From sequence record PV544171.1: a DNA stretch of 64,000 nucleotides; one strand, written 5' to 3'. This DNA is from Enterococcus phage AllMyExes. Under the pieces are notes generated by a model, which searched no databases, had not been told where the DNA came from, and saw nothing but the letters and a program-made list of their open reading frames with translations. Positions 43,165 to 63,562 of the stretch are shown here, piece after piece; within the stretch, counting starts at the first letter, position 1; every line of letters starts with the position of its first letter. Made by a program: the position numbers and the translations under genes.

Positions 43165-43209
43165 TTTCTCACTAGAATTAATTAGTGAGAAAAAAATTAA
43201 ATAAAACTA

Positions 43210-43271
43210 TTGACAAATAACAAAACATGATGTAAACTAAGTTTATAAGATAAAGAAGAGGAGAGATACAC
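43210..43271 (+). promoter_or_regulatory. Early promoter + conserved leader repeat (copy identical to 44631..44693)
   Basis: TTGACA is at 43210 and TAAACT at -10. The leader is gtttataagataaagaagaggagagat and the ATG is at 43272. A 58-bp exact match exists with the copy at 44630. Confidence 0.7.
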
Positions 43272-43523
43272 ATGAATGAACAAAAGAAAGTATATGCAAA
43301 ATTAACAGAGGACGAGGCAGTATTTGCTTGTGAACTAGGAGATAAAATTAAACAAATTAGAGAGAGCCAAGAGCTATCTCGATTAGAACTTGCAAAACGA
43401 GCAAAAGTAGACCACTCAACATTAATCTTAATTGAACAAGGTAAACGACTACCAACATTACGTATTATGATGAAGTTGAGCAAAGCGCTACACCGAGAAC
43501 TAGCTATTAGCTTTACAGATTAA
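43272..43523 (+). CDS. XRE-family helix-turn-helix transcriptional regulator
   Basis: The HTH_3 pattern reads LGDKIKQIRESQELSRLELAKRAKVDHSTLILIEQGKRLPTLRIMMKLSKAL. It is 83 aa. Confidence 0.7.
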   Translation: MNEQKKVYAKLTEDEAVFACELGDKIKQIRESQELSRLELAKRAKVDHSTLILIEQGKRLPTLRIMMKLSKALHRELAISFTD

Positions 43524-43534
43524 GGAGGGGCATC

Positions 43535-43822
43535 ATGAAAGGGAGCCTAGATTATTACAACTATTTGTACCAAACAATTGAAAATCGACCTACGGAGGAG
43601 CTAGATGTCCTTTATGATGGTCTTTATAAAAAAGCCGGTGACCTGTTTGCAATAGATAACTTCCAAGGAGTTAAAGAAGGCAGACTAATTTTAAAAATAT
43701 TAAAGGCTATTAGAGAAGAAATTAATAGTAGAATTGATGAAGAAATTGACATTTACTTGTATAATATCTATGACAGTGTATCAGATGAAGACAAACGAGT
43801 AAATTGGCTATATGAGGTGTAA
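43535..43822 (+). CDS. Hypothetical small protein
   Basis: A 95-aa ORF with the RBS aaggagggg. Confidence 0.5.
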   Translation: MKGSLDYYNYLYQTIENRPTEELDVLYDGLYKKAGDLFAIDNFQGVKEGRLILKILKAIREEINSRIDEEIDIYLYNIYDSVSDEDKRVNWLYEV

Positions 43823-43824
43823 GT

Positions 43825-44613
43825 ATGTTTAGTGTTGTTAAGGCTGACAGCTATGTTAAATCAGACATAGAAATGTATGAATTTAAGAATGTAAAAAGTT
43901 TGGCATTGACTAAGAAAGAGAAAGAACTATGGTCAGGCAAAATTGCTAAATATGCTAATGAGTTTATTGTAGATGCTTATGGAGACTACCATGGTAATAA
44001 AATACCTGAAATAGATGTTGTAATCAATGGTAAGCTAAGAAGAACCCTAGGTTCTTTTGTCCAATTCACTAACACAAACAAACACTGTATAGAGATAAAT
44101 GGTAGGTTTGTTAAAGAAGTTATTCTATTACAAGAAACACCCTTAGCTCAAAGAGCGCTTGATATTTTAATGGATGTAGCCAGACATGAAGCTATCCACT
44201 ATACACTTTGTTATTTAAATAGTTTAAGTGGGGGAGACCTACCAACGTTCAACTACCATGACGGTGGGGAAGACTTTGAAAAAGATTTATGTTTGACAGG
44301 AACTTCACCTAGTGGCGCTACGAAAGAAGAGTATATTTATAGTTCTTTTACACTAGGAGCCATCAGATGCCGACACCATAGTACTTGCCCTGAATGTGGG
44401 TTGGAAACATACATGTATACACGAGGACGGTACTATTGCTATAATGGGTGTGTAGGGGATAACGGTAGAAAAATTATATTTAGACCACAAGGTGATATTG
44501 CAATTTATATTGATGAACCAAAATCTAAAGCTAAACCAAAAGTAGAGGAAGCTCTGAAAGACTATAAAGGAGCGTTAAAGCTACCTTATACAGGTACAGA
44601 AGAAATAAAATAA
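43825..44613 (+). CDS. HExxH zinc metallopeptidase with C-terminal Cys4 zinc ribbon (SprT-like / ImmA-like)
   Basis: HEAIH lies within DVARHEAIHYTLCYL. The C-terminal ribbon is CPECG...CYNGC. It is 262 aa. Confidence 0.5.
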   Translation: MFSVVKADSYVKSDIEMYEFKNVKSLALTKKEKELWSGKIAKYANEFIVDAYGDYHGNKIPEIDVVINGKLRRTLGSFVQFTNTNKHCIEINGRFVKEVILLQETPLAQRALDILMDVARHEAIHYTLCYLNSLSGGDLPTFNYHDGGEDFEKDLCLTGTSPSGATKEEYIYSSFTLGAIRCRHHSTCPECGLETYMYTRGRYYCYNGCVGDNGRKIIFRPQGDIAIYIDEPKSKAKPKVEEALKDYKGALKLPYTGTEEIK

Positions 44614-44630
44614 AAAAATAGTTAAATGTA

Positions 44631-44693
44631 TTGACAAATAACAAAACATGATGTAAACTAAGTTTATAAGATAAAGAAGAGGAGAGATTTATT
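44631..44693 (+). promoter_or_regulatory. Early promoter + conserved leader repeat
   Basis: TTGACA is at 44631. It has the same 58-bp sequence as the copy at 43209. The ATG is at 44694. Confidence 0.7.
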
Positions 44694-45767
44694 ATGGCAT
44701 ACGTAACAAATATTGATGTAGTAGCAGATGGGTTAGATTTATATAATGGGAACTATGTGGTAGAACGAGGTCAAGTAGTTACTTTTAAACTACATGTAGC
44801 GACATGGAACAATGAGCCTACACCCGAAAATGCTTATGCGATTATTCGTAATAATGGAATAGATTATAAGAGTAAGGTTGATGAATTTGGCAATGCAGAG
44901 GTTACCTTCCCAGTTAATGGTCGTCCTGACCAAGTAACAACTAGCATCTTTGCATTAACTTCTGGATATGAGGGGGATATGCCTCGTGTAATGTCAGCTA
45001 TCTTTAGTGACGAAACAGAAATTAAACAAACTGTAATGAACGTTACAGCATCTATTAATGGGGAGCCAGTTAGTCGTGAAGGTGTATTTTTAGAACGAGA
45101 CCAAGTAGTCACTGTAGATGTTAAAGCAACATTATCTACAGGTAAGTTCTGGGAAGGCGCACAGGTAGGCGTGTACAATAACAACACGGAATACTTAGGT
45201 GACCTAGATGCAGATGGTTATGGTTCAGTAACTTTCCAAGTAAAAGGAAAACAAGGGATGGACACATCAGCTATCTACGTATTCGTTAAAGACCATGAAC
45301 GAGAAGCTACACTAACAGTTCCTGTGAAGTTCACTAATACTACTGCTACTACAGAAACTTCTACAGAAGAGTCGTCTACTGTTGATACGACTACAGGAAC
45401 AGAGGAGCCTTCTACTACGGATACAACAACTGTAGAAAGCTCTACAACGGATTCTACGTCCTCTACAGTAGATTCTACAGAAAGTACAGTAGAAAGCTCT
45501 ACAGAGCAAACAGTGACCAATGAAGACACTTCTACTGATTCAGAGGTAGTTGAAACTACAGAAACTTCCCAAGTAGCAGGCTACACAGAGTCTACTTCTA
45601 GTTCTACAGAGTCTAAAGAAGTTAAGGAAACTCATACTAGCACTACAGAACCTGCTAAAGAGTTGCCATCTACAGGCACAGAGGTAGATTATGGGCTTGT
45701 TGGGTTCGGTGGTGTAACATTAACAGTTGTAGTGGCACTAGTAATTAAAAAATTGTTGAATAAGTAA
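44694..45767 (+). CDS. Ser/Thr-rich protein with C-terminal LPxTG-type cell-wall sorting signal (LPSTG + hydrophobic segment + KKLLNK)
   Basis: The C-terminus is KELPSTGTEVDYGLVGFGGVTLTVVVALVIKKLLNK. About 120 aa form a T/S/E-rich stalk. The N-terminal region of about 200 aa is globular. There is no N-terminal signal peptide. Confidence 0.6.
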   Translation: MAYVTNIDVVADGLDLYNGNYVVERGQVVTFKLHVATWNNEPTPENAYAIIRNNGIDYKSKVDEFGNAEVTFPVNGRPDQVTTSIFALTSGYEGDMPRVMSAIFSDETEIKQTVMNVTASINGEPVSREGVFLERDQVVTVDVKATLSTGKFWEGAQVGVYNNNTEYLGDLDADGYGSVTFQVKGKQGMDTSAIYVFVKDHEREATLTVPVKFTNTTATTETSTEESSTVDTTTGTEEPSTTDTTTVESSTTDSTSSTVDSTESTVESSTEQTVTNEDTSTDSEVVETTETSQVAGYTESTSSSTESKEVKETHTSTTEPAKELPSTGTEVDYGLVGFGGVTLTVVVALVIKKLLNK

Positions 45768-45835
45768 GAAACACAATATTGCGACCCTCATTAATTGGGG
45801 GTTGCAAATTATATTATTTTTTTTAAATAAACCTA

Positions 45836-45892
45836 TTGACATTTAACAAACTATAAGGTAAACTAAGTTCATAAGATAAAGGAGGGAAACAA
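45836..45892 (+). promoter_or_regulatory. Early promoter + leader (diverged family member)
   Basis: TTGACA is at 45836 and TAAACT at -10. The leader is gttcataagataaaggagggaaacaa and the ATG is at 45893. An upstream hairpin with a T-run lies at about 45781-45825. Confidence 0.6.
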
Positions 45893-46195
45893 ATGAGTCA
45901 AGTAAGCAAACATGGAGAAAAACGTGTACGTGAACGTGTAGGAGTGAATAAGAGTTCGGTAGACCGTCAGTTTTACTTAGCGTTAGAACGAGGATACCGA
46001 CAACATGAGCTAACAGGACGTTTAAAGAAATGGGTAGTATCAAGAGTATTTAACTCTAAGTACCCTCAAACATGTATTTTATATAATGGTAAATGCTTCA
46101 TTGTTAGCAGTGAAGGTACACTAGTTACTGTGTTAAACATCCCAAGTAATTTACTAAAAGATTTTGCAAAATTATCTAAGAAAAGAGGAAAATAA
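45893..46195 (+). CDS. Hypothetical small early protein
   Basis: A 100-aa ORF and the first gene of a tightly packed operon. Confidence 0.55.
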   Translation: MSQVSKHGEKRVRERVGVNKSSVDRQFYLALERGYRQHELTGRLKKWVVSRVFNSKYPQTCILYNGKCFIVSSEGTLVTVLNIPSNLLKDFAKLSKKRGK

Positions 46196-46196
46196 A

Positions 46197-46499
46197 ATGG
46201 ATATTATGGATATTGAGTTTTTAGAAGAACATAAACAATTAGTAAAAGAACATGTAGAACAAGAATTAAAATTAATGCACCCTCTTAAGAAGTTACAAGT
46301 AATGACAGACTGGTTAGGAGATACAGAAGACAAGCTTTCTCAAGGAGACTTAGATTACTTCAATGACTTAACAGAAACAGAGCTAATAGAGGCAATGGAT
46401 GCTAGTGAGATTGTAGAGTTTTATTCAGATAACTTGTTAGATTTTATTGACTACTACAATATTGATTTAACTGGTTTAGAGGAACAGCTAGGTGTGTAA
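46197..46499 (+). CDS. Hypothetical small acidic early protein
   Basis: The ATG is at 46197, 1 nt after the upstream stop. The RBS is aaagaggaaaa. Confidence 0.5.
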   Translation: MDIMDIEFLEEHKQLVKEHVEQELKLMHPLKKLQVMTDWLGDTEDKLSQGDLDYFNDLTETELIEAMDASEIVEFYSDNLLDFIDYYNIDLTGLEEQLGV

Positions 46500-46501
46500 C
46501 C

Positions 46502-46786
46502 ATGGATAAGGCTGAAAAGGTAGATAACATTGTAAGACAGGTCGCAGGGGCTATTATTAAAACAACTGCAAAAGCAGCTTTTATTGTTTTTGTTTTAACC
46601 TTTGCAGGTGTTTTAGTAAGTTATTGTAGTTATTCATTTTTAACAAATGTAGGCTGGTTTACCCTACCTATGGTGGTATCAGTAGACTTGCTGTATGTTG
46701 CAATACTGTTAGGTGGACTAGCTTTTATATTTGTAGAGGTATACAAGGTAGTTTTAGAAGTGAAAAAGATAGTTAAACGAGGTTAG
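46502..46786 (+). CDS. Small membrane protein (2-3 TM)
   Basis: The hydrophobic segments are AAFIVFVLTFAGVLVSY and LLYVAILLGGLAFIFV. Confidence 0.5.
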   Translation: MDKAEKVDNIVRQVAGAIIKTTAKAAFIVFVLTFAGVLVSYCSYSFLTNVGWFTLPMVVSVDLLYVAILLGGLAFIFVEVYKVVLEVKKIVKRG

Positions 46787-46807
46787 AAAATATAGGAGGA
46801 ACTTATT

Positions 46808-47161
46808 ATGAATAAAAAAGTAGAGGAAATGACAATGGAAGAAAAGGATAAAGCGCTAATTGCAATGGGACTTATTGATGTAACACAAGAATTGGACTGG
46901 TTAGTGTTAGCTACTTGTGAAGACTGTGGGGAAGAGTATGAAGAAGAAGACTGTGCAGAGTGTGAGCATTGTGGTGGAGAAGACTTTATGATTGAAACAG
47001 GACTAGAGGGTACTCGTTGTGGACGTTGTGATAGCTACTTTGAGATGTGGGATGACTACTTTGAGTTTGAGAACGAAGGTAACCCATACAAAGATAAGCG
47101 TATCTGTGAACATTGTCATGATGAACTAGTATCTATGGGAATGGAAGAAAAGAAATTTTAA
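46808..47161 (+). CDS. Small Cys-rich protein with multiple CxxC zinc-ribbon motifs
   Basis: Motifs CEDCG, CAECEHCG, CGRCD and CEHCH are present. The RBS is taggagga. Confidence 0.55.
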   Translation: MNKKVEEMTMEEKDKALIAMGLIDVTQELDWLVLATCEDCGEEYEEEDCAECEHCGGEDFMIETGLEGTRCGRCDSYFEMWDDYFEFENEGNPYKDKRICEHCHDELVSMGMEEKKF

Positions 47162-47187
47162 AATATTACTAAGAAGGAGACTTAATC

Positions 47188-47565
47188 ATGAACGAATTAG
47201 AGGAACTTAAGAATACGCTGACTAGGCAAAAGCTTTCAATGTTGGAAAGTTACGAAATGAGAGAAGCATCATTTTGGATAATGTTTAATGGGACAATGCG
47301 TACTATCATGTCAGTAGCTGTAGTAGCCTTTGTGAGCTACGCTAAGCATGTAAGACCAGATAATGTAGCCACATGGTTTCTAGCTCTGATTTGGGTTATT
47401 TTCCTAGCAGAAGGTGCTAAAGGTGCTTATGATGCTATTGCATTCGGTATTCACCGCAAAAAATTTGCTAAACATATTAAAAATATGCGTGGAATAATCA
47501 CAATCACACAATTACTTATTAAAGAAGACGAAGAGAAATTAAACGAGGGTAAACTAGATGAGTAA
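47188..47565 (+). CDS. Small membrane protein
   Basis: The RBS is aaggag. The hydrophobic segments are IMSVAVVAFVSYA and WFLALIWVIFLA. Confidence 0.5.
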   Translation: MNELEELKNTLTRQKLSMLESYEMREASFWIMFNGTMRTIMSVAVVAFVSYAKHVRPDNVATWFLALIWVIFLAEGAKGAYDAIAFGIHRKKFAKHIKNMRGIITITQLLIKEDEEKLNEGKLDE

Positions 47566-47788
47566 AGATGAGAAATTAGTTGAGTGGTTTGTAGTTGCTT
47601 TAATGGTGATTATGTGGTTGCTTATCACGTTTAGTATCCTGTACACAATAGTTTCCTTACCTTTCATGGTACATGAAGGGGACTGGCTAGGGATTGTACG
47701 AAACGTACTACTGGACATTATAGTATTGGTAATTGGGGTTGTCGCTACATGGTTGCAATTAAGATTTAAAAAAGGAATGGAGGAATAA
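47558..47788 (+). CDS. Small membrane protein (2 TM)
   Basis: It overlaps the upstream gene by 8 nt. The hydrophobic segments are WFVVALMVIMWLLITFSILYTIV and LLDIIVLVIGVVATWL. Confidence 0.5.
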   Translation: MSKDEKLVEWFVVALMVIMWLLITFSILYTIVSLPFMVHEGDWLGIVRNVLLDIIVLVIGVVATWLQLRFKKGMEE

Positions 47789-47791
47789 TTA

Positions 47792-48166
47792 ATGGGATAT
47801 TTAGAGAGTGCAATTGAAGAAATTGAACGAGTACTACTAGGAAATAAAAGTCGTGACACCGAAGAAGTTTATTTAAACAATGCAATTCGGTATATCAAAA
47901 AAGAGTTAAAGAAAAAAGAGGTAGAGCCAACGTGGTTAAATGAACCACAGACATTGTTCCTTAATTGGTTTAACGAATTATACGCAGTAGGTGGTTTAAC
48001 TCATGTAACAGAGGCAGTAGGTTTTTTAGAATCCACAGGAGGTAGAATTAAGTATCCAGAAGCATATTCTGCTTTCAGTAATTTAAGTGAGAATGAATTG
48101 CTTGAGGTTTACAGTAAATTTTATACAGGGTTATTCTTAAAAGCACAAGGAGGTGAATTAGAATGA
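47792..48166 (+). CDS. Hypothetical small early protein
   Basis: A 124-aa ORF with the RBS ggaatggagg. Confidence 0.5.
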   Translation: MGYLESAIEEIERVLLGNKSRDTEEVYLNNAIRYIKKELKKKEVEPTWLNEPQTLFLNWFNELYAVGGLTHVTEAVGFLESTGGRIKYPEAYSAFSNLSENELLEVYSKFYTGLFLKAQGGELE

Positions 48167-48420
48167 ACTTTCATGGTAAAGTATTTCATGATAAAGTATT
48201 TGACATTCTTTCTCGTGATTACCCTGATTGGCAGAGGTATCAGACAGAGAAACGACCACATCCCAATGAGCTTAGAAAAGACTTTGCCATTGATAGTACA
48301 GATAGTAGATATGAAGAGTATGTTATGGGAGAGTTTAATGTAGAAACGGCTAGCGGAGATGTTAAAGTATACGCAGTAGGAATTAGAAGAGTAGTTCATA
48401 AAAGAGCTGAGGAGGAGTAA
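48163..48420 (+). CDS. Hypothetical small early protein
   Basis: An 85-aa ORF with a 4-nt overlap. Confidence 0.5.
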   Translation: MNFHGKVFHDKVFDILSRDYPDWQRYQTEKRPHPNELRKDFAIDSTDSRYEEYVMGEFNVETASGDVKVYAVGIRRVVHKRAEEE

Positions 48421-48425
48421 ATCAA

Positions 48426-49019
48426 GTGGAGTACACAGAGAAAGACATTAAAGAAGGTATGAAGTTACGTTGCACAGATAATAGTAATGTAGGTTACTGG
48501 GAAGTTGATAAGGTTTACGAGGTAACACGTAATAAAGACCTTGGCTTAGTTATCGCAGGGGAAGGTGAAAGGAGTCACAGAACCGTAAAGTATATTTTAG
48601 GGGTGTTAAATGGTGACAGCAAAATTAAATTTGAAGTTGTAGAGGAAAAGCCTGTACGATTTGCTAAGGTAACTTGTGTATACCCTCCTGATAGAGGTCT
48701 TGTAGAGGTTGGGCATTGTTACAAAGTACTTAAAGAGTTCCCTGAGGGACGTGTGCGTATTTACCTTAATAGTAAACTAGGGAACCATGTGTTACTCCCA
48801 GACCAGTTTGTCTTTGTAGATGAGCCATCAAATGATGGAGAAAAAGACGTAGAAGAGCTAGATGTAGAAGCTAAGATTCTAGCCAAGATTGAACAGTTAA
48901 CAGCAGAAGCAGAACAACTGTTTGCTAAACGTGACCGTGTAAATGAGCAAGCACTTAACTTAAATGCAAAAGCTCGTAAGTTAGAAGAATCTTTAGAGGT
49001 ACTAAGGGAGTACATGTAG
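48426..49019 (+). CDS. Paralog of the 13200..13832 coiled-coil family
   Basis: It has a GTG start. Compare MEYTEKDIKEGMKLRCTDNSNVGYW with MRYTLEDLHAGMKLRCTDDKEFSHW. The C-terminus ...QLFAKRDRV...LEESLEVLREYM matches the family coiled coil. Confidence 0.55.
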   Translation: MEYTEKDIKEGMKLRCTDNSNVGYWEVDKVYEVTRNKDLGLVIAGEGERSHRTVKYILGVLNGDSKIKFEVVEEKPVRFAKVTCVYPPDRGLVEVGHCYKVLKEFPEGRVRIYLNSKLGNHVLLPDQFVFVDEPSNDGEKDVEELDVEAKILAKIEQLTAEAEQLFAKRDRVNEQALNLNAKARKLEESLEVLREYM

Positions 49020-49060
49020 CTAAGTGTTTTTATGATTACATCTATTAAGGAGATGAGAGA

Positions 49061-49903
49061 ATGATTTATTATATTAATTTTTTAGAAGATTTCGCATCAA
49101 GTTGGAGTGCAGATAAGCGTTATCGTGTTCGTAGAATTATGACAACTGGTAGCTACGCTATTATTGACAACTACGGTCATGTCAGGTTTAGCAGTGACAC
49201 AGCACGAGGTGTTCTTAAGAATATAGAGCAGGAGTATGCCACTCATAAGGTTGAGCTTACACTAGCAGAAGAAGAAACAACGAATAAGCCTAGGTTTAAA
49301 GTAGGGGAACGAGTGAAAGTGTCTAATGATTTACAGGCATCCGGGATAGAATATAAGACTCACATAGCCTCTAAGATGCTAGGCTATGCAGGTAATGAGG
49401 CTACTATTACACGTGTTTGGGGGAGTAACGTACGCTACTTTATTAACATCGATGGTATACATCAAGATTGGTGTTGGACGGAGGATATGTTAGATAAGAT
49501 TGAAGAAGAGCCTACACTATCTGTTAGATGTGTTGAGACAGTTCACCCCTTTTGGACAAAAGGTAAAGACTACGAGATAAACCTTACATCCGATGGTCGC
49601 TATCGGGTCTGGGATGATGAGGAAGATGGTAGCAGTGGCAAATCCATAAAAGAACTACTGGACGTTATTAATAGTAGCGGTAACAAATTTGAGCTACTAG
49701 ATGAAACACCCTCAGAAGCAGAACCTAGACTAAACCATGACATGTCTGACTTAGAGAAGATAGAGGCTAAGATTACTGCCTTATCGGAAGAATCTTATCA
49801 GTTGTTCGAGAAGAGTGAAGAGTTAAGTACTAGAGCAATTGAACTGCAAGATGAGTCAATAGCTTTAGAAGAAGCATTGTATACTATTAAACAATATTTA
49901 TAG
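49061..49903 (+). CDS. Coiled-coil family member (divergent N-terminal domain)
   Basis: The C-terminus KITALSEESYQLFEKSEELSTRAIELQDESIALEEALYTIKQYL matches the family tail. Confidence 0.5.
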   Translation: MIYYINFLEDFASSWSADKRYRVRRIMTTGSYAIIDNYGHVRFSSDTARGVLKNIEQEYATHKVELTLAEEETTNKPRFKVGERVKVSNDLQASGIEYKTHIASKMLGYAGNEATITRVWGSNVRYFINIDGIHQDWCWTEDMLDKIEEEPTLSVRCVETVHPFWTKGKDYEINLTSDGRYRVWDDEEDGSSGKSIKELLDVINSSGNKFELLDETPSEAEPRLNHDMSDLEKIEAKITALSEESYQLFEKSEELSTRAIELQDESIALEEALYTIKQYL

Positions 49904-49915
49904 GAGGAGATTTAA

Positions 49916-50545
49916 ATGCGTAAAAATGTAATTTGTAGATTAGAATGTGTTTCAAAAGACAAAGATAGCTTAGGTGAATGGACTGTAGATAATATTTACC
50001 CTGTGTTTGAATCAGAACTAGGGAAAGTATATATCCTCGATGATGAAGGTACCACTTGTTCCAGAGATAGCGTGTCTCTTATTATCTCTAGTATGGCTAG
50101 CTTTGGGGTAACATTTAGGGTAGCAAAAGATAAAGCAGAAGACCCTATCCCTAGCAATCCACAAAGCAGTACATCATTAGAAATAGTTAAAGGGTATGAA
50201 CACTTAGCGGAGTTTATAGACTCATTAAGTAGCAACCAACGTGTAGTGTCTCACTCAGTAGACCCTAACTCTCAATGGCACTATATCATTTATGAAACTA
50301 AGTCAGCTGAATTGGGCGGAGTAACCTTAGAGGAACTACTAGACACACTAGTGTATAATGTACATGTTGTAGTGATGGAACGTAGTAAGAGAACATACGA
50401 GCCACTAGAAAGTCACACGTTTAAGTGGGAATATGGAACAAAGAATACCGAGGATTGGGAAAAAATTGTACCTTTATTAGGTTGCAAGGTGTTTACTACT
50501 AACCTCAATAGTAACCGAGGGTTCCATATTACTATTTTGAAATAA
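49916..50545 (+). CDS. Hypothetical protein, N-terminus related to the GMKLRCTD family
   Basis: It opens MRKNVICRLECVSKDKDSLGEWTVDNIYPV. No coiled-coil tail is present. Confidence 0.45.
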   Translation: MRKNVICRLECVSKDKDSLGEWTVDNIYPVFESELGKVYILDDEGTTCSRDSVSLIISSMASFGVTFRVAKDKAEDPIPSNPQSSTSLEIVKGYEHLAEFIDSLSSNQRVVSHSVDPNSQWHYIIYETKSAELGGVTLEELLDTLVYNVHVVVMERSKRTYEPLESHTFKWEYGTKNTEDWEKIVPLLGCKVFTTNLNSNRGFHITILK

Positions 50546-50549
50546 ACTG

Positions 50550-50578
50550 TTGACAACTACTATAGTCCATGCTATAGT
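50550..50578 (+). promoter_or_regulatory. Sigma-A-type promoter (TTGACA-17-TATAGT)
   Basis: TTGACA is at 50550-50555 and TATAGT at 50573-50578. Confidence 0.55.
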
Positions 50579-50622
50579 AGGTACATAGATAAAAAACAAA
50601 CAATATTAGGAGGTAACGTAAA

Positions 50623-50865: not shown

Positions 50866-50879
50866 ATTAAGGAGGGGTT

Positions 50880-51023: not shown

Positions 51024-51035
51024 GAGGACAACAAC

Positions 51036-55126: not shown

Positions 55127-55134
55127 AAAAACTA

Positions 55135-55836: not shown

Positions 55837-55848
55837 TTGTCTTTTCTA

Positions 55849-55910: not shown

Positions 55911-56117
55911 ATGAAATTATCTGATATTATTCTAGTAGGTTTATTAGTTAGCGTTGTACTACTTTGGGGCTACCTTAGCATTATGATTTGCTTACAAGTT
56001 TTCAGAGCGTTGGGCGGTTGGGATATTAGAACGTTAACGGTTTGCAGTGGTTTGCTATTTGCTTATGTTTTCGGTTTAAAAGGAATTTGGGAACAAGGGA
56101 TAGGGAAAAATAAATAA
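55911..56117 (+). CDS. Small membrane protein (2 TM)
   Basis: The hydrophobic segments are IILVGLLVSVVLLWGYLSIMICL and LTVCSGLLFAYVFGL. Confidence 0.5.
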   Translation: MKLSDIILVGLLVSVVLLWGYLSIMICLQVFRALGGWDIRTLTVCSGLLFAYVFGLKGIWEQGIGKNK

Positions 56118-56136
56118 AAAAAATTAATCAAAACTA

Positions 56137-56193
56137 TTGACAAAAAACAAAAGATAGTGTATTATAGGTTTATAAGATAAAGAGAGGAAGTTA
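56137..56193 (+). promoter_or_regulatory. Orphan copy of the promoter-leader repeat (first unit of a 77-bp tandem duplication)
   Basis: The full promoter + leader ends in ...gataaagagaggaagtt and is followed directly by the second copy rather than by an ATG. Confidence 0.6.
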
Positions 56194-56213
56194 AAAAAAA
56201 TTAATCAAAACTA

Positions 56214-56269
56214 TTGACAAAAAACAAAAGATAGTGTATTATAGGTTTATAAGATAAAGAGAGGAAGTT
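56214..56269 (+). promoter_or_regulatory. Early promoter + conserved leader repeat (second unit of tandem duplication)
   Basis: TTGACA is at 56214. The leader is ...gataaagagaggaagttatgaacATG. Confidence 0.65.
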
Positions 56270-56521
56270 ATGAACATGAATGAATTAGAATGTATTTACG
56301 ACAGTAGAAAGAGCTTTTATGGAAAAGCTAACCTAGTAGAAGAGGAAAACGGTATTTCTCTTTATTCATATGATACAAAAGTTGCGACAATTTACACTAA
56401 TGGACTAGCAAAGGTTTTCGGTACGTACTCACAGACAACGTTGCGACATATTAAGGAATTTTTTAAGCAAAACGGACTAAAAGCAGACACTAAAAAACAA
56501 ATTGAAAAAGATTATCTATAA
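56270..56521 (+). CDS. Hypothetical small early protein (N-terminus MNMNELE)
   Basis: An 83-aa ORF. Confidence 0.5.
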   Translation: MNMNELECIYDSRKSFYGKANLVEEENGISLYSYDTKVATIYTNGLAKVFGTYSQTTLRHIKEFFKQNGLKADTKKQIEKDYL

Positions 56522-56550
56522 AGGAAGAAGGGGGAGAAGAATAGAAAAAC

Positions 56551-56580
56551 GGGGGAGGGGCTTCCTCCCTTTACATAGAC
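56551..56580 (+). terminator. Conserved hairpin element, copy 3
   Basis: It reads gggggaggggcttcctccc-tttacatagac. Confidence 0.45.
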
Positions 56581-56819: not shown

Positions 56820-57158
56820 GTGGCGGTTACTATTAATAATAGAATAAAAAAATTGCAATATGAAAGAATCAGAAAGCTAGAAAAGAGAAAAAGAGGTGAA
56901 CCACCTGAATTTATTTTCAACGGTAACTATTCATTGGAAGAAATAGAATTATTCTTACATTTTAGAAAAAAAAGTGAGGGCAAAAAAATGTTAAAAACAG
57001 AAGAAATTAATAATTCAGAGCATACAGGATACCTTATACTAGATGGAGATAATCTAGTTGTGCGAGTAGAGAAAAATAGAGAAACAGGGGAAACCTTTTG
57101 TTATGTTTATGCAGATAGCAATGATGATGATTTTACAGCAAAATTTAAAATTGAATAG
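56820..57158 (+). CDS. Hypothetical small early protein (start uncertain)
   Basis: The GTG at 56820 abuts an RBS-like aaagagggg. The alternative ATG at 56986 (RBS gtgaggg) would give 56 aa. Confidence 0.4.
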   Translation: MAVTINNRIKKLQYERIRKLEKRKRGEPPEFIFNGNYSLEEIELFLHFRKKSEGKKMLKTEEINNSEHTGYLILDGDNLVVRVEKNRETGETFCYVYADSNDDDFTAKFKIE

Positions 57159-57167
57159 TCAAAACTA

Positions 57168-57228
57168 TTGACAAATAACAAAAGATAGACTATAATAGGC
57201 TTATAAGATAAAGAAAGGAATGGTAAAG
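57168..57228 (+). promoter_or_regulatory. Early promoter + conserved leader repeat
   Basis: TTGACA is at 57168. The leader is gcttataagataaagaaaggaatggtaaagATG. Confidence 0.6.
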
Positions 57229-57525
57229 ATGACAAAAACAGAACTACAATATAAAAAAGCAATAGGAGTTGCAATCTTTGCAACAAGTGGAAAGGATAAA
57301 AAGCAACTAGGAAACGTGGCACCGTTTAGCATTTATGAGATTTTAGAAATTGACTTAAATAAAAATCGGGTATATTATGCTTTAAATTGTGGGGAACGAC
57401 ATGCAGTATGCTTTACTAAACTACGCAAAGAAGAAGAAACAGGGAACGATTTTATTTTAATCAATAAACAACCATTTTTCTTAAAAGATATGCACAAAGG
57501 TTTAAGTTGGTCAAAAAGTTTATAA
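57229..57525 (+). CDS. Hypothetical small early protein
   Basis: The ATG at 57229 is placed by analogy with the other leaders. The ORF-track start is 57220. Confidence 0.5.
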   Translation: MTKTELQYKKAIGVAIFATSGKDKKQLGNVAPFSIYEILEIDLNKNRVYYALNCGERHAVCFTKLRKEEETGNDFILINKQPFFLKDMHKGLSWSKSL

Positions 57526-57532
57526 AAAACTA

Positions 57533-57594
57533 TTGACAAATAACAATAACTAATATACAATAGGTTTATAAAATAAAGAGAGGAAGTTTTTAAC
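57533..57594 (+). promoter_or_regulatory. Early promoter + conserved leader repeat
   Basis: TTGACA is at 57533. The leader is gtttataaaataaagagaggaagtttttaacATG. Confidence 0.6.
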
Positions 57595-58029
57595 ATGACA
57601 AAAGAAAACAACGTATTTTTAAATGAAAAAGAACTAATGAAAGAAATTATCGAAACTTTGGAAAATGGTTTTGATGGTTGTTACTGCGACTTGCACAGTG
57701 AAGTTTTTAACTATGGTACAAATACAGATACCGAGGAATTAGAAGAATATGGAATTTTTAACGCAATTGGAGAAATACAAGAATACGAAGAAGAAAATTT
57801 TGGGGAGGTTTTGACAGACCTTGGGAACGCTTCGGCAGTTGCTGATATGCTTTACTATATTAAAGGCTACGAGTTTTTATATGGTAGATTAGACTTTAAT
57901 GATGTTTTAGCAGATGTTGCAGAGGGGCTAAAATTAGATAAAGACTTATGGAACGAGGAAGCCACCGAGGAAGTGAACAAGGCTATTATTGAGTGTTTAA
58001 AAAAAGAAGTGCCTTATTTAATAGATTAG
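57595..58029 (+). CDS. Hypothetical small acidic early protein
   Basis: A 144-aa ORF. Confidence 0.5.
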   Translation: MTKENNVFLNEKELMKEIIETLENGFDGCYCDLHSEVFNYGTNTDTEELEEYGIFNAIGEIQEYEEENFGEVLTDLGNASAVADMLYYIKGYEFLYGRLDFNDVLADVAEGLKLDKDLWNEEATEEVNKAIIECLKKEVPYLID

Positions 58030-58035
58030 AAAAAC

Positions 58036-58070
58036 AGGGAGGAGTTTCCTCCCTTTACATAGAAAAAAAA
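58036..58070 (+). terminator. Conserved hairpin element, copy 4
   Basis: It reads agggaggagtttcctccc-tttacatagaaaaaaaa. Confidence 0.5.
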
Positions 58071-59522: not shown

Positions 59523-59559
59523 ATATATAAAGAGGTAAAGAGATAAGGAACTATAGAAC

Positions 59560-59800
59560 TATAAAACTATATACACTTATAGGGGAAGAGATGGAGGAGG
59601 GGAGGAGGTAAAGGAAAGAAGAGGGAGAAAGAAAGCAATAAGGAATAAGGCAATAAAGAAAAAAAGTTGTTTACCTATATACTTATACACCTATGTACCT
59701 ATATACAGATAGCCACTAACAAGCAATAGTAAGGGAATAAAGGAATAAGAGAGAGAGGAAAGAGGAAAGAGGAAAGAGGAAAAAAAGTTGTTTACCTGAG
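59560..59800. repeat. Polypurine (A/G-rich) tract with (aggaaag)n repeats and two copies of 'aaaaaagttgtttacct'
   Basis: The plus strand is nearly pyrimidine-free: ...ggaggaggggaggaggtaaaggaaagaagagggagaaagaaagcaataaggaataaggcaataaagaaaaaaagttgtttacct ... gagagagaggaaagaggaaagaggaaagaggaaaaaaagttgtttacct. Confidence 0.8.
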
Positions 59801-60341
59801 ATTTTAAAGAACCGACCTCATCAGAAACCCGACAAGGGGGCGCATAAGTCTATTTCAAAATAATCTGAAATAAGTATAGTTATTACTGTTTATAGATGAT
59901 TATCCTTAAATATCTGAAAATAGGGGCGTTTATCTTATTATATAGTTAGCTATCTTACACTATTAATCATCTAGCCTATTACTGCATTCATTGCTATTAT
60001 ATTCTATATAGGGAGCGCTTATACTGTTTATAGTGTAATTATGAGGGGAACGGCTAGGAACGCTTATACGGGCTTATAGGGGGCTTTAAATGCATAGGCT
60101 ATTTATACATATATTAGAATACACAAGGAGGAGGGGCAGAAAGTTAGTAGGTTAGACTGTTAAAAACAAACGGGGGCTAGATGCACATTGTTATTTTACT
60201 GATTGAGTTAGGTTAGCTAGCTAAAATAAGAATGCTATTGTAGCAACGTTTATAAGAAATAGGGGTGTACTTTTCCCCTAGGGAGGTTTTAAAAGGGTAT
60301 AAAATTCTTTTGTTATTTAATTAAAAATTTCATCTTAGCTA

Positions 60342-60405
60342 TTGACTTTTAACAATAACTATTGTATAGTTAACTTGTAAGATAAAGAGAGGGGAAAACT
60401 TAAAA
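60342..60405 (+). promoter_or_regulatory. Early promoter + conserved leader repeat (TTGACT variant)
   Basis: It reads ttgacttttaacaataactattgtatagttaacttgtaagataaagagaggggaaaacttaaaaATG. Confidence 0.6.
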
Positions 60406-60672
60406 ATGAAATTAAAAGAATTTATCAAACTAGCAGAATCAAAGGGCGCTACATTAGAGGCATATAACGAGCTAGGAGGTTATGAACTAACTAGAGGGGA
60501 CATAGTAGACCAGAATCCCGTTTTAATTGCTTACATGCAAGGGACTCACAGCGTAGAAATATCAAACGAGGAACTAGAAAACAAAGAGTTAACAGAGCTA
60601 GCGTTTGTCTATAAAAATGCAAGTTTTATTTATCCAAACGAAAAAGAATTATTGTCAGGACTAGGACTATAG
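60406..60672 (+). CDS. Hypothetical small early protein
   Basis: An 88-aa ORF. Confidence 0.5.
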   Translation: MKLKEFIKLAESKGATLEAYNELGGYELTRGDIVDQNPVLIAYMQGTHSVEISNEELENKELTELAFVYKNASFIYPNEKELLSGLGL

Positions 60673-60769
60673 CACAACGGCGTATAAAGCCCGTAACTAA
60701 GTTTTAACGGGCTTTATATATAAATACATTATGAGGGCTTATAAGGGCTTATGAGGGGGACTAATAAGA

Positions 60770-60937
60770 ATGCTAGAGGTGGGCAAATTTGTACGAGGTA
60801 ATAACGGCGCAAGAACTTGGGTGGGTCAGATTGTAGGTATAGACAGGCTAGCGGGGGAATATCGTGTGCGTGACGTTGTAACAGGAATATACTTTTATGT
60901 ATCTTGTAGCGCTGTTTATGAATGCGCTAGACCATAA
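60770..60937 (+). CDS. Small hypothetical protein (55 aa), below ORF-track cutoff
   Basis: The RBS gaggggg is followed by an ATG. It reads MLEVGKFVRGNNGARTWVGQIVGIDRLAGEYRVRDVVTGIYFYVSCSAVYECARP. Confidence 0.4.
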   Translation: MLEVGKFVRGNNGARTWVGQIVGIDRLAGEYRVRDVVTGIYFYVSCSAVYECARP

Positions 60938-60968
60938 AACATTTAATAAAAAAATTTCATCTTATCTA

Positions 60969-61030
60969 TTGACTTTTAACAATAACTATTATACAATAGG
61001 TTTATCAGATAGAGAGAGGAAGTTACAAAC
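60969..61030 (+). promoter_or_regulatory. Early promoter + conserved leader repeat (TTGACT variant)
   Basis: It reads ttgacttttaacaataactattatacaataggtttatcagatagagagaggaagttacaaacATG. Confidence 0.6.
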
Positions 61031-61207
61031 ATGGAATACAACACATTAGACGAATTACTAGAAGAGGAATACAGCACACTAGACGAATTGCTAGACAGTG
61101 AAGAATTTAAAAAACAAATGAACAACCTTAATCACGTTCCGCAAATGCAACCGCAAAGCCACAACAGCAATACGCTAGCAGACACGGGACGTTATCCAGA
61201 AAAATAA
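61031..61207 (+). CDS. Small acidic protein (58 aa), below ORF-track cutoff
   Basis: It reads MEYNTLDELLEEEYSTLDELLDSEEFKKQMNNLNHVPQMQPQSHNSNTLADTGRYPEK and has an internal TLDELL repeat. Confidence 0.45.
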   Translation: MEYNTLDELLEEEYSTLDELLDSEEFKKQMNNLNHVPQMQPQSHNSNTLADTGRYPEK

Positions 61208-61286
61208 AATTGAAAAAAAAGGGGTTGACAAGTTCAGCCCCTAATGATATACTAGGTACATAAGATAGATAGGGAGGAATTTTATA

Positions 61287-61421
61287 ATGACAATCGAACA
61301 GATTAACGCAGAAGTAAAACAACAAGAAATGCTTGGTAACAAATTAGAAGTAATTCAGTTAGGTAATGATATTTACATGTATATTAACGGTGAACCATAC
61401 AAAACAATCGAATTAATTTAA
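61287..61421 (+). CDS. Small protein (44 aa, N-terminus MTIEQ), below ORF-track cutoff
   Basis: The RBS is tagggagga. A paralogous start lies at the 61502 gene. Confidence 0.4.
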   Translation: MTIEQINAEVKQQEMLGNKLEVIQLGNDIYMYINGEPYKTIELI

Positions 61422-61439
61422 AAAGTTTCATCTTTTCTA

Positions 61440-61501
61440 TTGACAAATAACAACAGCTAGTATATAATAGGTTTATAAGATAAAGAGAGGGAGTTATTAC
61501 T
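61440..61501 (+). promoter_or_regulatory. Early promoter + conserved leader repeat
   Basis: It reads ttgacaaataacaacagctagtatataataggtttataagataaagagagggagttattactATG. Confidence 0.6.
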
Positions 61502-61660
61502 ATGACAATCGAACAAGTGAAAGACTACGGCAAAGCATACGGAAAAGAGCTATCAACTAAGGAAGTAAAAGAATTTTTTGAGAAACACAACGACATGCCT
61601 TCACTAATGGACTTAGCAAAGTTTTGCGGGGCAATGAACGAGGACGGAACAAAAAATTAA
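61502..61660 (+). CDS. Small protein (52 aa, N-terminus MTIEQ), below ORF-track cutoff
   Basis: It reads MTIEQVKDYGKAYGKELSTKEVKEFFEKHNDMPSLMDLAKFCGAMNEDGTKN. Confidence 0.45.
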   Translation: MTIEQVKDYGKAYGKELSTKEVKEFFEKHNDMPSLMDLAKFCGAMNEDGTKN

Positions 61661-61670
61661 AAAAAAACTA

Positions 61671-61794
61671 TTGACAAATAACAAAACATAATGTAATATA
61701 ATAAGTGTAAGAGGGAAAGGGTTAAACCTAAAAAGGAAAATGAGTACTTCTTTCTTACACAATACATATCAGATAAAGAGAGGAAGTTATTACT
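61671..61794 (+). promoter_or_regulatory. Early promoter + leader carrying an inserted hairpin (gtgtaaga...tcttacac)
   Basis: TTGACA is at 61671. About 55 nt of extra leader sequence with an 8-bp inverted repeat precede the conserved ...atcagataaagagaggaagttattactATG. Confidence 0.55.
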
Positions 61795-62034
61795 ATGACG
61801 CCAGAACTAGCAGAAATGAACCTAACTAAAAATGATAGCCCATTTTCGTTTATTAATGAATCAGGTGTTTTCATTGAACCGATTAAGAACCCGTTTTCTT
61901 GTGAGGGTACTTATTTACAAGCTTGTAAGGACGTAGCGGGAGAGCTAGAAACAAATAAAGAGGTAGGGAACGAAATCGACAACTATTTAAAAATGCAGAA
62001 TTGGCTAAATAAGTTAGCATATGAATATATTTAA
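61795..62034 (+). CDS. Hypothetical small early protein
   Basis: A 79-aa ORF. Confidence 0.5.
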   Translation: MTPELAEMNLTKNDSPFSFINESGVFIEPIKNPFSCEGTYLQACKDVAGELETNKEVGNEIDNYLKMQNWLNKLAYEYI

Positions 62035-62052
62035 AAAGTTTCATCTTTTCTA

Positions 62053-62113
62053 TTGACAAATAACAACAATTAGTATAATATAATAGGTGTAAGAGAGAGG
62101 GAGGAATTTCATA
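62053..62113 (+). promoter_or_regulatory. Early promoter + conserved leader repeat
   Basis: It reads ttgacaaataacaacaattagtataatataataggtgtaagagagagggaggaatttcataATG. Confidence 0.6.
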
Positions 62114-62338
62114 ATGAAATCAATTATCATCAAACAAATCAAGGACGGTTACAAAGGCATTTTAGAACGTAGGAACAACGGTTGGGCAGATGAGGAACTA
62201 AACAGCTACACAACAGGCGTAAGCAATACACTATTCGAGCTTATAAACGACTTACAAGACAATGGTGTTATCAGTGAAGAGGAAGCCGAAGAAATCGAAG
62301 AAGTATTTTCAAACACTATCGATATATTAAATTTTTAA
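62114..62338 (+). CDS. Hypothetical small acidic early protein
   Basis: A 74-aa ORF. Confidence 0.5.
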   Translation: MKSIIIKQIKDGYKGILERRNNGWADEELNSYTTGVSNTLFELINDLQDNGVISEEEAEEIEEVFSNTIDILNF

Positions 62339-62347
62339 ATAAAGTTA

Positions 62348-62435
62348 TTGACAAAAAACAATAACTAGTGTAGTATAATAAGTGTAAGGAGGAATAAACC
62401 TCTTTACACCACACAACAGAAAGGAAGTTTTTACT
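62348..62435 (+). promoter_or_regulatory. Early promoter + leader with inserted hairpin (gtgtaaggagg...cctctttacac)
   Basis: TTGACA is at 62348. The -10 is gtgtagtataat. The hairpin precedes cagaaaggaagtttttactATG. Confidence 0.55.
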
Positions 62436-63131
62436 ATGACAGAATGGGCAAACATGAATAAAGAAGAGGTACTAGAATTACTTAATGATTGGTTTGGCGT
62501 TAGTGACTATGATACAGTTATGGAAGAAGCAGAAGAGATGAAACAAGTCACCTTTACAGGTAGCACAAACCGACCTTTATTAGGTGGTAACAATGACTTA
62601 ATCGGTTTACCTCAATTCTTTAAAGACAATGAAGCAGAATCAGAGTTCCCAACTTATGAAGAATTACTAGAGGAACTAGAGAAAGATACATGGAATCTTG
62701 AAGCAGAGGACAACACTTATAACTACGGCGGTTTCTTAGAACGTGAAATGGACTTTAAAACTATTCAGGCAGAAAATTCAGACACGACTATTGCATTCTT
62801 TGCAATCCATACGGGGGTAGATGTGAGAGCGGGCTACTCAAAAGCAATCCCAGTTATTTTTGAAACTTATTACGATTTTCAAGAGTTCCTAGGTAACTAC
62901 TTTTATAGTCAAGGTTACTATGCTTTTAAACACGACAACAAGGAATACACAATCAGTTTAGATGTTTCGGCTACCTCGGAATATGTACGAATTTATATAA
63001 CTGATAATAATAACAACGAGTTACAACTAGACTACGAACAAGAAACTTGTATGGACTTAGACAAAGAGAGCGTAGCAGAATACCTGACTAGCCAAGGAAT
63101 TGAGTTTAAAGACTTGAAACCTGCATTGTAA
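62436..63131 (+). CDS. Hypothetical acidic early protein
   Basis: A 231-aa ORF. Confidence 0.5.
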   Translation: MTEWANMNKEEVLELLNDWFGVSDYDTVMEEAEEMKQVTFTGSTNRPLLGGNNDLIGLPQFFKDNEAESEFPTYEELLEELEKDTWNLEAEDNTYNYGGFLEREMDFKTIQAENSDTTIAFFAIHTGVDVRAGYSKAIPVIFETYYDFQEFLGNYFYSQGYYAFKHDNKEYTISLDVSATSEYVRIYITDNNNNELQLDYEQETCMDLDKESVAEYLTSQGIEFKDLKPAL

Positions 63132-63237
63132 CCATATAAGGCACTAGGGAGCTTATACAATAGAGCTACAAGCTTCCTAGTGTAATTATAAGGTAAATAA
63201 CTAGAAACGCTTATACGAAAGAATAGGGGGCTTTAAA

Positions 63238-63486
63238 ATGAAGTTTAAACGAGCAATCGAGGAATTGGAAGAGAAAGAGGGAATCACCTTAGAACCAGAA
63301 TATAACGGGGTATATACAGTTAAGGGCTACTATTCTAACTTAGAGGTATTACATTGTAGCGACTACGATGAAGAATATAATAACGAGGAACTAGAGGACT
63401 GCCATTTACATGAACTTGTATTCAGGTATGAGGGAGAGCAAGCATATAAGAGCGGATATTATGAACTGCTAAAATTATTGAGTTAA
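63238..63486 (+). CDS. Hypothetical small acidic early protein
   Basis: It is 82 aa. It is preceded by the alternative leader aacgcttatacgaaagaatagggggctttaaaATG. Confidence 0.5.
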   Translation: MKFKRAIEELEEKEGITLEPEYNGVYTVKGYYSNLEVLHCSDYDEEYNNEELEDCHLHELVFRYEGEQAYKSGYYELLKLLS

Positions 63487-63490
63487 TCTA

Positions 63491-63562
63491 TTGACAAAAA
63501 ACAAAAACTTTGGTATTCTATATTTGTAAGATAAATAAAACAAATGAAAGAGAGTGTTAAGA
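63491..63562 (+). promoter_or_regulatory. Early promoter + leader (family member)
   Basis: It reads ttgacaaaaaacaaaaactttggtattctatatttgtaagataaataaaacaaatgaaagagagtgttaagaATG. Confidence 0.5.

Follow-up and report, generated by a model that had tools for sequence, protein, structure and literature searches.

The host-takeover module of phage SPO1, reportedly set out in a study of 1998 (cited in PMC6873191), brings together small early genes, several sigma-A promoters and good ribosome sites at or in the terminal repeat of the genome. Phage T4 offers a second precedent in its PeSL cassettes (Arbiol et al., 2010, PMC2839356; Comeau et al., 2014, PMC4122927), in which a repeated intergenic element combines an early promoter of host consensus, preceded by an AT-rich tract, with a stem-loop, a Shine-Dalgarno (SD) sequence and a start codon, and which are concentrated in hyperplastic regions before ORFans, with indels and replacements between close relatives falling at the motifs. 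Here we describe an element of Enterococcus phage AllMyExes that recalls both systems. In the 64,000-nt stretch of its genome that we analyzed as a whole (PV544171.1; “the window”), an array of small genes at 43.2-63.7 kb is punctuated by copies of an ~80-bp promoter-leader unit. Our favored explanation, which we consider probable though well short of certain, is that these are portable early promoter-leader units at the plastic right end of the genome that are also the joints of single-gene cassette exchange.

Judged from their sequence, the units are a Gram-positive analogue of the T4 PeSL cassettes set in an SPO1-type early region, and in functional terms the PeSL is the closest system. The repeated intergenic promoter with its upstream tract, SD and start codon, the concentration in a hyperplastic region before ORFans and the indels and replacements at the motifs are all found here too. 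The units are nonetheless not strict PeSL members because the defining stem-loop is missing from nearly all of them: 20 of the 21 units and the short leaders have no stable stem, a stem is found only over the -35 at 61225, and the four hairpin repeats of the array are separate elements that stand before some genes only. Further differences are the Gram-positive host and the other phage family, conservation that runs through the transcribed leader, and the fact that units and whole cassettes are common to unrelated siphoviruses. SPO1 is of the same family, and the likeness in small early genes, multiple promoters for the host polymerase and ribosome sites is, on our side, one of sequence. Only the last ~4 kb of the 20-kb array, however, lies within the putative terminal repeat, and neither a long common promoter-leader unit nor cassette exchange is part of the SPO1 description. 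A sequence-only reading of the window had likened the array to the SPO1 terminal-redundancy module; this was apt in kind, as the array runs into the terminal repeat, although most of it (43.2-59.5 kb) is outside. Repeated intergenic sequence families that act as promoters are reported as well for halovirus HF2 (PMC8707807), which differs in being an archaeal virus with promoters of archaeal type.

A profile built from the window's own unit copies (nhmmer) finds 21 full copies, all on the plus strand, within 43193-63552 (E from 1e-18 to 9e-9), to which one divergent copy (TTGACA at 61225) and a leader-only remnant (61764-61799) can be added. The repeat is not due to chance, because TTGACA-N15-19-TATNAT has 11 matches where 0.54 are expected and the leader 20-mer, at three mismatches or fewer, has 11 where 0.04 are expected; the repeat announced by the sequence-only reading is thus real. 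The copies are not spread over the 20 kb given for the array, with 3 copies at 43.2-45.9 kb and 18 at 53.4-63.5 kb. Elsewhere in the 64 kb the sole profile match is weak and partial (at 18636, E=4e-4). This is a separate consensus-type promoter (18636-18664) in the conserved core of the genome, after a terminator, that has TTGACAAATAAC like the units and another leader.

Each unit comprises, in order, an A/T-rich upstream tract (within the 20 nt before the -35), CTATTGACAAAWAACAA, a 17-bp spacer, the -10, TATAAGATAAAG, AGARAGGAAG, 7-9 A/T-rich nt and an ATG; the AGARAGGAAG-like SD, the 7-9 nt and the ATG form the 3′ end of 20 of the 21 copies. Are these perfect sigma-A promoters, as had been proposed? 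Their spacing is, being 17 bp in 20 copies under a promoter scan (copy 43210 was outside the range of the scan, and its promoter is identical to that of copy 44631), and so is nearly every -35 (TTGACA in 19/21, TTGACT in 2/21), but TATAAT at 17-bp spacing is present in only three copies, the rest being one or two bases off. The leader, described as nearly invariant, turned out to be much less so: the 19-nt block ATAAGATAAAGAGAGGAAG is exact in four copies and within one mismatch in eight, and at three mismatches or fewer it is found at 12 places, including the leader-only remnant at 61768. The exact identity between copies 43210 and 44631 was confirmed, at 60 nt rather than the 58 bp given for it. 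When 119 distinct copies from seven Kochikohdavirus genomes are aligned, conservation peaks at CTATTGACAAA-AACAA, i.e., the -35 hexamer and its flanks, with the ends of the -10 hexamer second and T-T-AGATAAAG-AGGAA third; copies in Schiekvirus retain CTATTGACA, AACAA and TGTAAGATAAA. Subfamilies are evident, with exact identities of 60-77 nt between copies, and other consensus promoters of the window (3349, 8961) are without the unit's flanks. Several unrelated cassette genes have first codons in common (54236/56270, ATGAACATGAATGAATTAGAA; 61287/61502, ATGACAATCGAACA; 54860/57229/57595, ATGACAAAAGAA/ATGACAAAAACA), and the homology of the repeat therefore reaches a few codons into the coding sequence.

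A start of transcription ~7 nt past the -10 would fall on the A of ATAAGATAAAG and gives a predicted mRNA 5′ end of AUAAGAUAAAG, i.e., one starting AUAAGAUAAAGAGAGGAAGUU. The AGARAGGAAG element pairs with the last 8-10 nt of the 3′ end of Firmicute 16S rRNA. It is a particular SD variant, since the internal genes mostly have AGGAGG, of similar predicted strength; an unusually strong SD in the units was considered and rejected (duplexes of -11.3 vs -10.1 kcal/mol for internal genes, p=0.17). A structured leader was likewise rejected for the short leaders, which at ~28 nt have predicted free energies of 0 to -2.4 kcal/mol and fold no better than shuffled sequences, and the only Rfam match in 42-64 kb at E<=1, to an miRNA, is spurious. 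Conservation beyond the needs of a promoter and ribosome binding site, from which the sequence-only reading had argued for a post-transcriptional signal, is reduced in extent: about half of the excess in the leader is accounted for by an extended SD. The leaders of units 61671 and 62348 are of another kind and form stable 5′ hairpins that begin UGUAAG, with comparable hairpin leaders at ~5532 and ~6434 in Schiekvirus EfV12-phi1. The leader block itself is found behind three promoter cores, that of the units, that of 61225, and one shared by siphovirus AL3 and the window near 50550. Firmicute mRNAs are shielded from 5′-end-dependent decay by a ribosome bound near the 5′ end or by a 5′ hairpin (PMC7509114, PMC3997798), and a strong SD that binds ribosomes is credited, in the summary of Hue et al. 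(1995) given in PMC7509114, with stabilizing Bacillus mRNAs, including phage SP82 early RNA. Protection from such decay is the role we prefer for the leader. Its resemblance to the Firmicute “5′ stabilizers”, as represented by the SP82 polypurine sequence in these secondary accounts (Hue et al., 1995, via PMC7509114 and PMC3997798), is in having purine-rich, SD-like sequence near the 5′ end of an early transcript, and is one of composition and position, not of sequence homology.

By DNA searches, the window is from a phiEF24C-like Enterococcus myovirus (Herelleviridae, Brockvirinae, Kochikohdavirus), with 113 of its 117 matches being Enterococcus phage records of the phiEF24C/Kochikohdavirus group. 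Its core (20-43 kb) is 96-98% covered in many relatives at ~98% identity, vs at most 52% for 43-63.9 kb and at most 58% for 53.1-64 kb, and because of this disparity we regard 43-64 kb, on sequence comparison, as the plastic (hyperplastic) end of an otherwise conserved genome. In six relatives the region likewise holds units, 16-27 per genome and all on the plus strand. If a cassette is defined as the sequence between successive units, then single-gene cassettes are essentially either 100% covered or not covered at all in a given relative, and partial coverage is seen for multi-gene operon segments and a few cassettes. One cassette, 62053, has a shifted position in the gene order of three phages. 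Of 160 alignment ends, 145 are in gene junctions and 59 within units, which make up 8.4% of the region; all 19 junctions with a unit have a breakpoint in at least one relative, compared with 15 of the 31 other junctions (Fisher p=9e-5). When a relative lacks a cassette, the one unit that it has there aligns to both of the window units that flank the cassette. A cross-tabulation of segment classes in the style of a four-gamete test found chimeric units in 1-7 of 100 class quartets, which is too weak to lean on.

There is a parallel from experiment. When Schiekvirus EfV12-phi1 was passaged serially for 8 days, two hypothetical genes were lost in every replicate (PMC6365445). We located these genes (2984-3367 and 3486-3764) next to each other in the homologous array of that phage, flanked by units at 2916 and 3784 that have a 27-nt exact block in common, and the sequence arrangement suggests that they were lost via recombination between the units.

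The units are not confined to one phage family. An 82-nt unit query (unit 55445) found 80 phage records, including Saphexavirus, Schiekvirus and Efquatrovirus; the match is full length at 89% identity in the ~58-kb Saphexavirus siphoviruses, 76-82% in Schiekvirus, and limited to the leader part in Efquatrovirus. Saphexavirus Toszka has three units within a small-gene array, 88-95% identical to window units, and adjoining homologous genes of 72-75% nucleotide and 67-68% protein identity. Its third cassette carries the gene that is missing at the window's empty unit (gp118-type), whose protein is 95-97.5% identical to that of Kochikohdavirus. In 30 of 31 matching records the gp118-type cassette is 95-100% identical at the nucleotide level (the remaining match is partial, at 85%), and these records span ~58-kb siphoviruses and ~142-kb myoviruses that are interleaved when ranked by identity. 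In a three-way alignment, near-identity sets in at the -10/leader of the upstream unit, takes in the gene and all of the downstream unit, and ends just past the ATG of the next gene. Homologous recombination in the units fits because homology stops inside the flanking units, and this footprint is consistent with what would be expected of recombinational exchange within units. Could the leader have been copied from a host gene instead? In a scan of one genome per species from 185,579 species, the exact 21-nt leader had no match in Enterococcus, and two matches on unrelated metagenome-assembled genome (MAG) contigs, with neither a unit nor homology, look like chance; host mimicry was accordingly rejected, and because no Enterococcus match was found the leader is best taken as phage-borne, so far as exact matches in a single genome for each species can tell. 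A scan of IMG/VR with the 21-mer returned four contigs, three of them known siphovirus genomes, and is uninformative on breadth. A check for an earlier description of the module found none of the repeat in Enterococcus phages in the literature searched, the coverage of which was incomplete.

We envisage the following course of events. On DNA entry, unmodified host sigma-A RNA polymerase would fire the units and produce many short mono- or oligocistronic mRNAs, as sequence together with experiments at the level of the family would lead one to expect. The unstructured, purine-rich leader of ~28 nt would then load ribosomes near the 5′ end for efficient translation and would probably guard the transcript against 5′-end-dependent decay, a task for which the two long-leader variants may use their opening 5′ hairpin. 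Finally, genome comparison indicates that the unit is the preferred joint for deletion, insertion, re-ordering and exchange of single-gene cassettes, because it is repeated in one orientation at gene boundaries, and that this exchange takes place among Kochikohdavirus strains and with unrelated Saphexavirus siphoviruses of the same host. That the units are host sigma-A early promoters driving immediate-early expression is probable by analogy. In Kayvirus there are early promoters of sigma-70 type (PMC10383478), and in the Listeria Herelleviridae phage CKA15 genes on or beside the terminal repeat peak at 5 min, their promoters are of SigA type and have an AT-rich UP element, and gains and losses of genes cluster near the genome ends (PMC12282133). 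The promoters of these phages are like the units in their TTGAC(A/T), 17-bp spacer and UP element. They differ in that only hexamers with a TRTG/TG extension have been described for them, whereas in the units ~80 bp are conserved, spacer and leader included, and there is no general TG extension.

A number of observations weigh against this explanation. The timing of expression is borrowed from other genera of Herelleviridae, and the limits of the terminal repeat are drawn by homology only. “Burst translation” is not specifically supported because the SD of the units is no stronger than that of the internal genes, and both the spacer half AAWAACAA and the first ~10 transcribed nt are conserved without a demonstrated role. 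The units are preferred but not sole joints, because 15 of the 31 junctions without a unit have breakpoints as well; operon-internal junctions and the four hairpin repeats also act as joints, and the breakpoint statistics are inflated both by the greater length of unit junctions and by the non-independence of the six relatives. An exact 77-bp duplication at 56115-56270 is not expected from a simple unit-to-unit crossover. Lastly, the high identity of units across families could reflect selection on some further signal in place of recent exchange. This last thought can be taken further, to a bolder proposal that we put forward as no better than speculative: that the unit is a “plug-and-play” adaptor of unrelated virulent Enterococcus phages (Herelleviridae, Saphexavirus and in part Efquatrovirus) which unites immediate-early expression, a recombination landing pad for trading single anti-host genes, and an mRNA end, AUAAGAUAAAG, that is read by a host or phage factor (for instance in evading or recruiting 5′-end-dependent decay), its conservation being selected and not a mere by-product of exchange.

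What else could have produced such a pattern? The leader AUAAGAUAAAGAGAGGAAG might be a dedicated post-transcriptional control site, recognized or cleaved by a phage or host factor (for example a RegA-like translational repressor, a RegB-like endonuclease or a small RNA) that turns the early genes off together. A block extending over the leader and start region that is conserved over four Enterococcus phage genera, that is joined to three promoter cores and so behaves as a separable module, that uses the AGARAGGAAG variant where internal genes mostly use AGGAGG, and that has no match in Enterococcus genomes is what such a site might look like. The same pattern is nevertheless given by recombinational spread of modules, about half of the block is explained as SD, and it has neither predicted structure nor an Rfam family; moreover, the exact block is present in only 4/21 copies, functional-looking copies (53403, 62053, 63491) have quite different leaders, and no candidate regulator was identified in an array with a single recognizable DNA-binding protein. 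We therefore think a control site unlikely. That one DNA-binding protein, the XRE-type protein of 43272-43523, might itself be the regulator if the -35 flank and spacer CTATTGACAAAWAACAA, with its imperfect TTG-N8-CAA dyad, were an operator through which all units are repressed after the early phase. It would be suitably placed, as the gene of this XRE helix-turn-helix (HTH) protein comes first behind the first unit; the protein is labeled “repressor” in relatives, and in Kochikohdavirus as in Schiekvirus the 5′ half of the spacer is more conserved than is usual in sigma-A promoters. Yet the dyad, as read off the sequence, is weak (4/7 positions), Toszka has the unit with no XRE homologue found by tblastn in the 50 kb searched, and the early promoters of Herelleviridae are normally shut off by phage sigma or anti-sigma factors, all of which makes this operator distinctly improbable.

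Two other accounts do without any regulator. If the copies were strong promoters and ribosome sites that had converged independently, with gene turnover an unrelated matter, then the -35, the spacing and the SD would be no more than any strong sigma-A promoter requires, and breakpoints at gene boundaries without units would come as no surprise. Convergence would not, however, give copies common positions with no consensus role (in the spacer, the upstream tract and the first codons), nor clear subfamilies with exact identities of 60-77 nt, and the consensus promoters at 3349 and 8961 show what such promoters look like without unit flanks; with breakpoints enriched in units and cross-family homology stopping within them, we find this account very hard to maintain. 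Many copies, subfamilies and occurrence in unrelated phages would also be in keeping with a selfish mobile element, either like a miniature inverted-repeat transposable element (MITE) or linked to a homing endonuclease, that inserts upstream of genes. All copies, though, have a single orientation and stand exactly at gene starts; reading them revealed no terminal inverted repeats or target-site duplications (a dedicated search for inverted repeats was not made), no transposase or endonuclease is recognizable in the array by Pfam or PHROG, and the exact 21-nt leader scan gave no copies in bacterial genomes. A selfish element is to our minds the least credible of the explanations considered. Portable promoter-leader units that double as exchange joints are thus the reading we carry forward.

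The main interest of the units is in the exchange of cassettes across phage families and in what this means for Enterococcus phage therapy and engineering. Leading candidates for therapy against Enterococcus faecalis include the phiEF24C-like and SAP6-like phages, and the most variable genes of the phiEF24C-like phages are in the array; if the unit is an exchange joint, cocktails of both phage types would be expected to trade early genes, which bears on the assessment of their stability and safety. For engineering, the unit would be a compact and probably very strong early expression signal. It also provides a simple rule by which accessory early genes, as candidates for takeover or anti-defense functions, could be listed in >100 genomes, and it would extend the PeSL idea from T4 to Gram-positive phages and across phage families.

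The array consists of 51 co-oriented small open reading frames (ORFs; 43272-63712, plus strand) of 33-357 aa with a median of 88 aa; 10 are shorter than 60 aa, 30 of the products are acidic, 6 resemble transmembrane (TM) proteins and 1 resembles a zinc ribbon. The sequence-only reading was accurate in seeing about 50 such mini-genes and in regarding their proteins as uncharacterized, but its statement that each of them is driven by a copy goes too far: only 20/51 genes are directly behind a unit, the rest are in operons, and one unit has no gene at all. Pfam matches were obtained for only 3/51 proteins (an XRE-type HTH, a marginal zinc ribbon and an LPXTG anchor), and among the PHROG matches listed no family has a described function save the transcription-regulator families of the XRE protein. 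A role of the array proteins in host takeover or anti-defense is presumed from position and precedent.

The units can now be followed along the plus strand, each being named by the position of its -35. Unit 43210 (43193-43277; nhmmer E=3e-14) drives the XRE-HTH gene, 43272-43523, which is the first of the array (HTH_3 Pfam match, E=4e-11), and two downstream genes. In this stretch, the 262-aa product of 43825-44613 has an HExxH-like motif (HEAIH) and is Cys-rich in its C-terminal part; Pfam and PDB sequence searches gave no match for it. Unit 44631 (44616-44691) drives 44694-45767, and this whole cassette is missing in Riverwalk; its product, 357 aa long and Ser/Thr-rich, has an LPXTG cell-wall anchor (Gram_pos_anchor match) and a C-terminal membrane segment, and is encoded here by a virulent phage. 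Unit 45836 (45821-45897), preceded by a strong terminator at 45779-45807, is the single unit behind a 17-gene operon (45893-53134) that occupies 45.9-53.1 kb. An internal promoter of this operon at 50537-50593 (TTGACA-17-TATAGT with TG) shows 86% identity, over 58 nt, with one in Efquatrovirus siphovirus AL3 (1966-2023), and the AL3 counterpart is joined to a leader of the unit type. Beyond the operon lies a non-coding gap (53135-53400) with a 31-bp tandem repeat of 2.9 copies (53182-53272) followed by unusually G+C-rich sequence (~53270-53340); overlapping Riverwalk alignments suggest that the number of repeats varies. The gap ends at unit 53403 (53389-53489), which has a divergent, longer and A-rich leader and drives gene 53490-53789.

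From here on the units are closely spaced. Unit 53807 (53800-53873) drives gene 53869-54159, a cassette missing in PBEF129 and phage 53, and unit 54180 (54163-54247), 92-95% identical to units of Saphexavirus Toszka and PEF9, drives gene 54242-54565, a cassette missing in Ef2.3, in which one unit aligns to both flanking window units. The cassette of unit 54798 (54780-54865; gene 54860-55126) is present, among the six relatives, only in Riverwalk and phage 53. Unit 55135 (55121-55201) is a perfect TTGACA-17-TATAAT and drives gene 55197-55424; unit 55445 (55427-55512), the query of the search that found the 80 phage records, drives gene 55507-55800; and unit 55849 (55833-55914) drives the gene of a 68-aa membrane protein (55911-56117). 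The gene-less unit, 56137 (56120-56193), is the first half of the exact 77-bp tandem duplication (Tandem Repeats Finder, TRF: 56115-56270, period 77, 2.0 copies, 100% match). At the same site EF1TV has a single unit, and the five other relatives have a 243-249-bp gene between two units. Between 56.2 and 59.5 kb, 12 genes are behind three units: 56214 (56196-56281), which drives gene 56276-56521 and downstream genes; 57168 (57151-57231), of perfect consensus, which drives gene 57229-57525; and 57533 (57515-57600), which drives the 144-aa gene 57595-58029 and together with it is 75% identical in nucleotides and 68% in amino acids to a Toszka cassette. A PDB sequence search with the product of gene 57595 gave no match.

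Interspersed with these units are four plus-strand copies of a G/C hairpin repeat, GGGAGG..CCTCCC (TTTACATA/TTTACATAGAAAAAAA; repeat family D8), at 54562-54595, 55797-55830, 56546-56579 and 58030-58063. The repeat has a poor U-tract on the plus strand. Only the copy at 55797-55830 is followed directly by a unit (55849); next after that at 54562 is a promoter not of the unit type (54604), and the other two have no promoter after them. Two of the junctions with a hairpin repeat, 56521/56595 and 58029/58095, are places where synteny breaks in 4-5 of the six relatives.

The remaining units fall within the putative terminal repeat. The record of EF1TV annotates a “right direct repeat” of 1911 bp whose first base is homologous to window position ~59799, and by homology the direct terminal repeat of this phage would start there too. 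So delimited (~59799-64000, ~4.2 kb), the repeat holds 10 genes and 7 units plus the divergent 61225, with the other 41 genes upstream. Its left boundary is within a non-coding stretch of ~800 bp (59523-60322) that is without an ORF and contains short purine-rich tandem repeats of periods 7-8 (TRF) and an 18-nt direct repeat, AAAAAAAGTTGTTTACCT, at ~59659 and ~59780; the EF1TV repeat starts right after the second AAAAAAAGTTGTTTACCT copy, and the stretch may be a terminase or end-recognition region. The first unit inside is 60342 (TTGACT; 60323-60399; gene 60406-60672), followed by 60969 (TTGACT; 60950-61035; gene 61031-61207). The divergent unit 61225 (61205-61289) has a different promoter core with a TG-extended -10, a stem over its -35 and the same type of leader, and drives gene 61287-61421. 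The best nhmmer match (E=1e-18) is unit 61440 (61421-61507), of perfect consensus, which drives gene 61502-61660. In the long leader of unit 61671 (61664-61794; gene 61795-62034) a 5′-proximal hairpin (61706-61759) is followed by the leader block, with a fold of -18 kcal/mol. Unit 62053 (62034-62115) drives gene 62114-62338, and it is in phiEF24C, Ef2.3 and phage 53 that its cassette differs in gene-order position. The hairpin of unit 62348 (62329-62435) spans 62383-62408 (-16.4 kcal/mol, z=-3.7), and unit 63491 (63473-63562), with a divergent leader, drives gene 63563-63712.

The gene driven by unit 62348 (62436-63131) encodes an acidic 231-aa protein that is present in all relatives and has only 20 close homologues. 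Its identification as a C3-like ADP-ribosyltransferase was tried and rejected: there is a single weak PDB match (4xsg, E=0.0035), and in the alignment the protein does not retain the catalytic STS and QxE; an AlphaFold model (pLDDT 38.6) was too poor to use.

Terminal repeats of 1.9-2.8 kb have been reported for phages of this group, a range that fits cassette turnover within the terminal repeat. The genes of the array are all on the plus strand, the window has zero tRNAs in its 64 kb, and a putative phage sigma factor is annotated in the core of one relative's record. The window ends where related records stop or where minus-strand genes of the left arm start, and its last stretch (63715-64000), non-coding and partly G+C-rich with a small hairpin at 63790-63807, is presumably the right limit of the terminal repeat.

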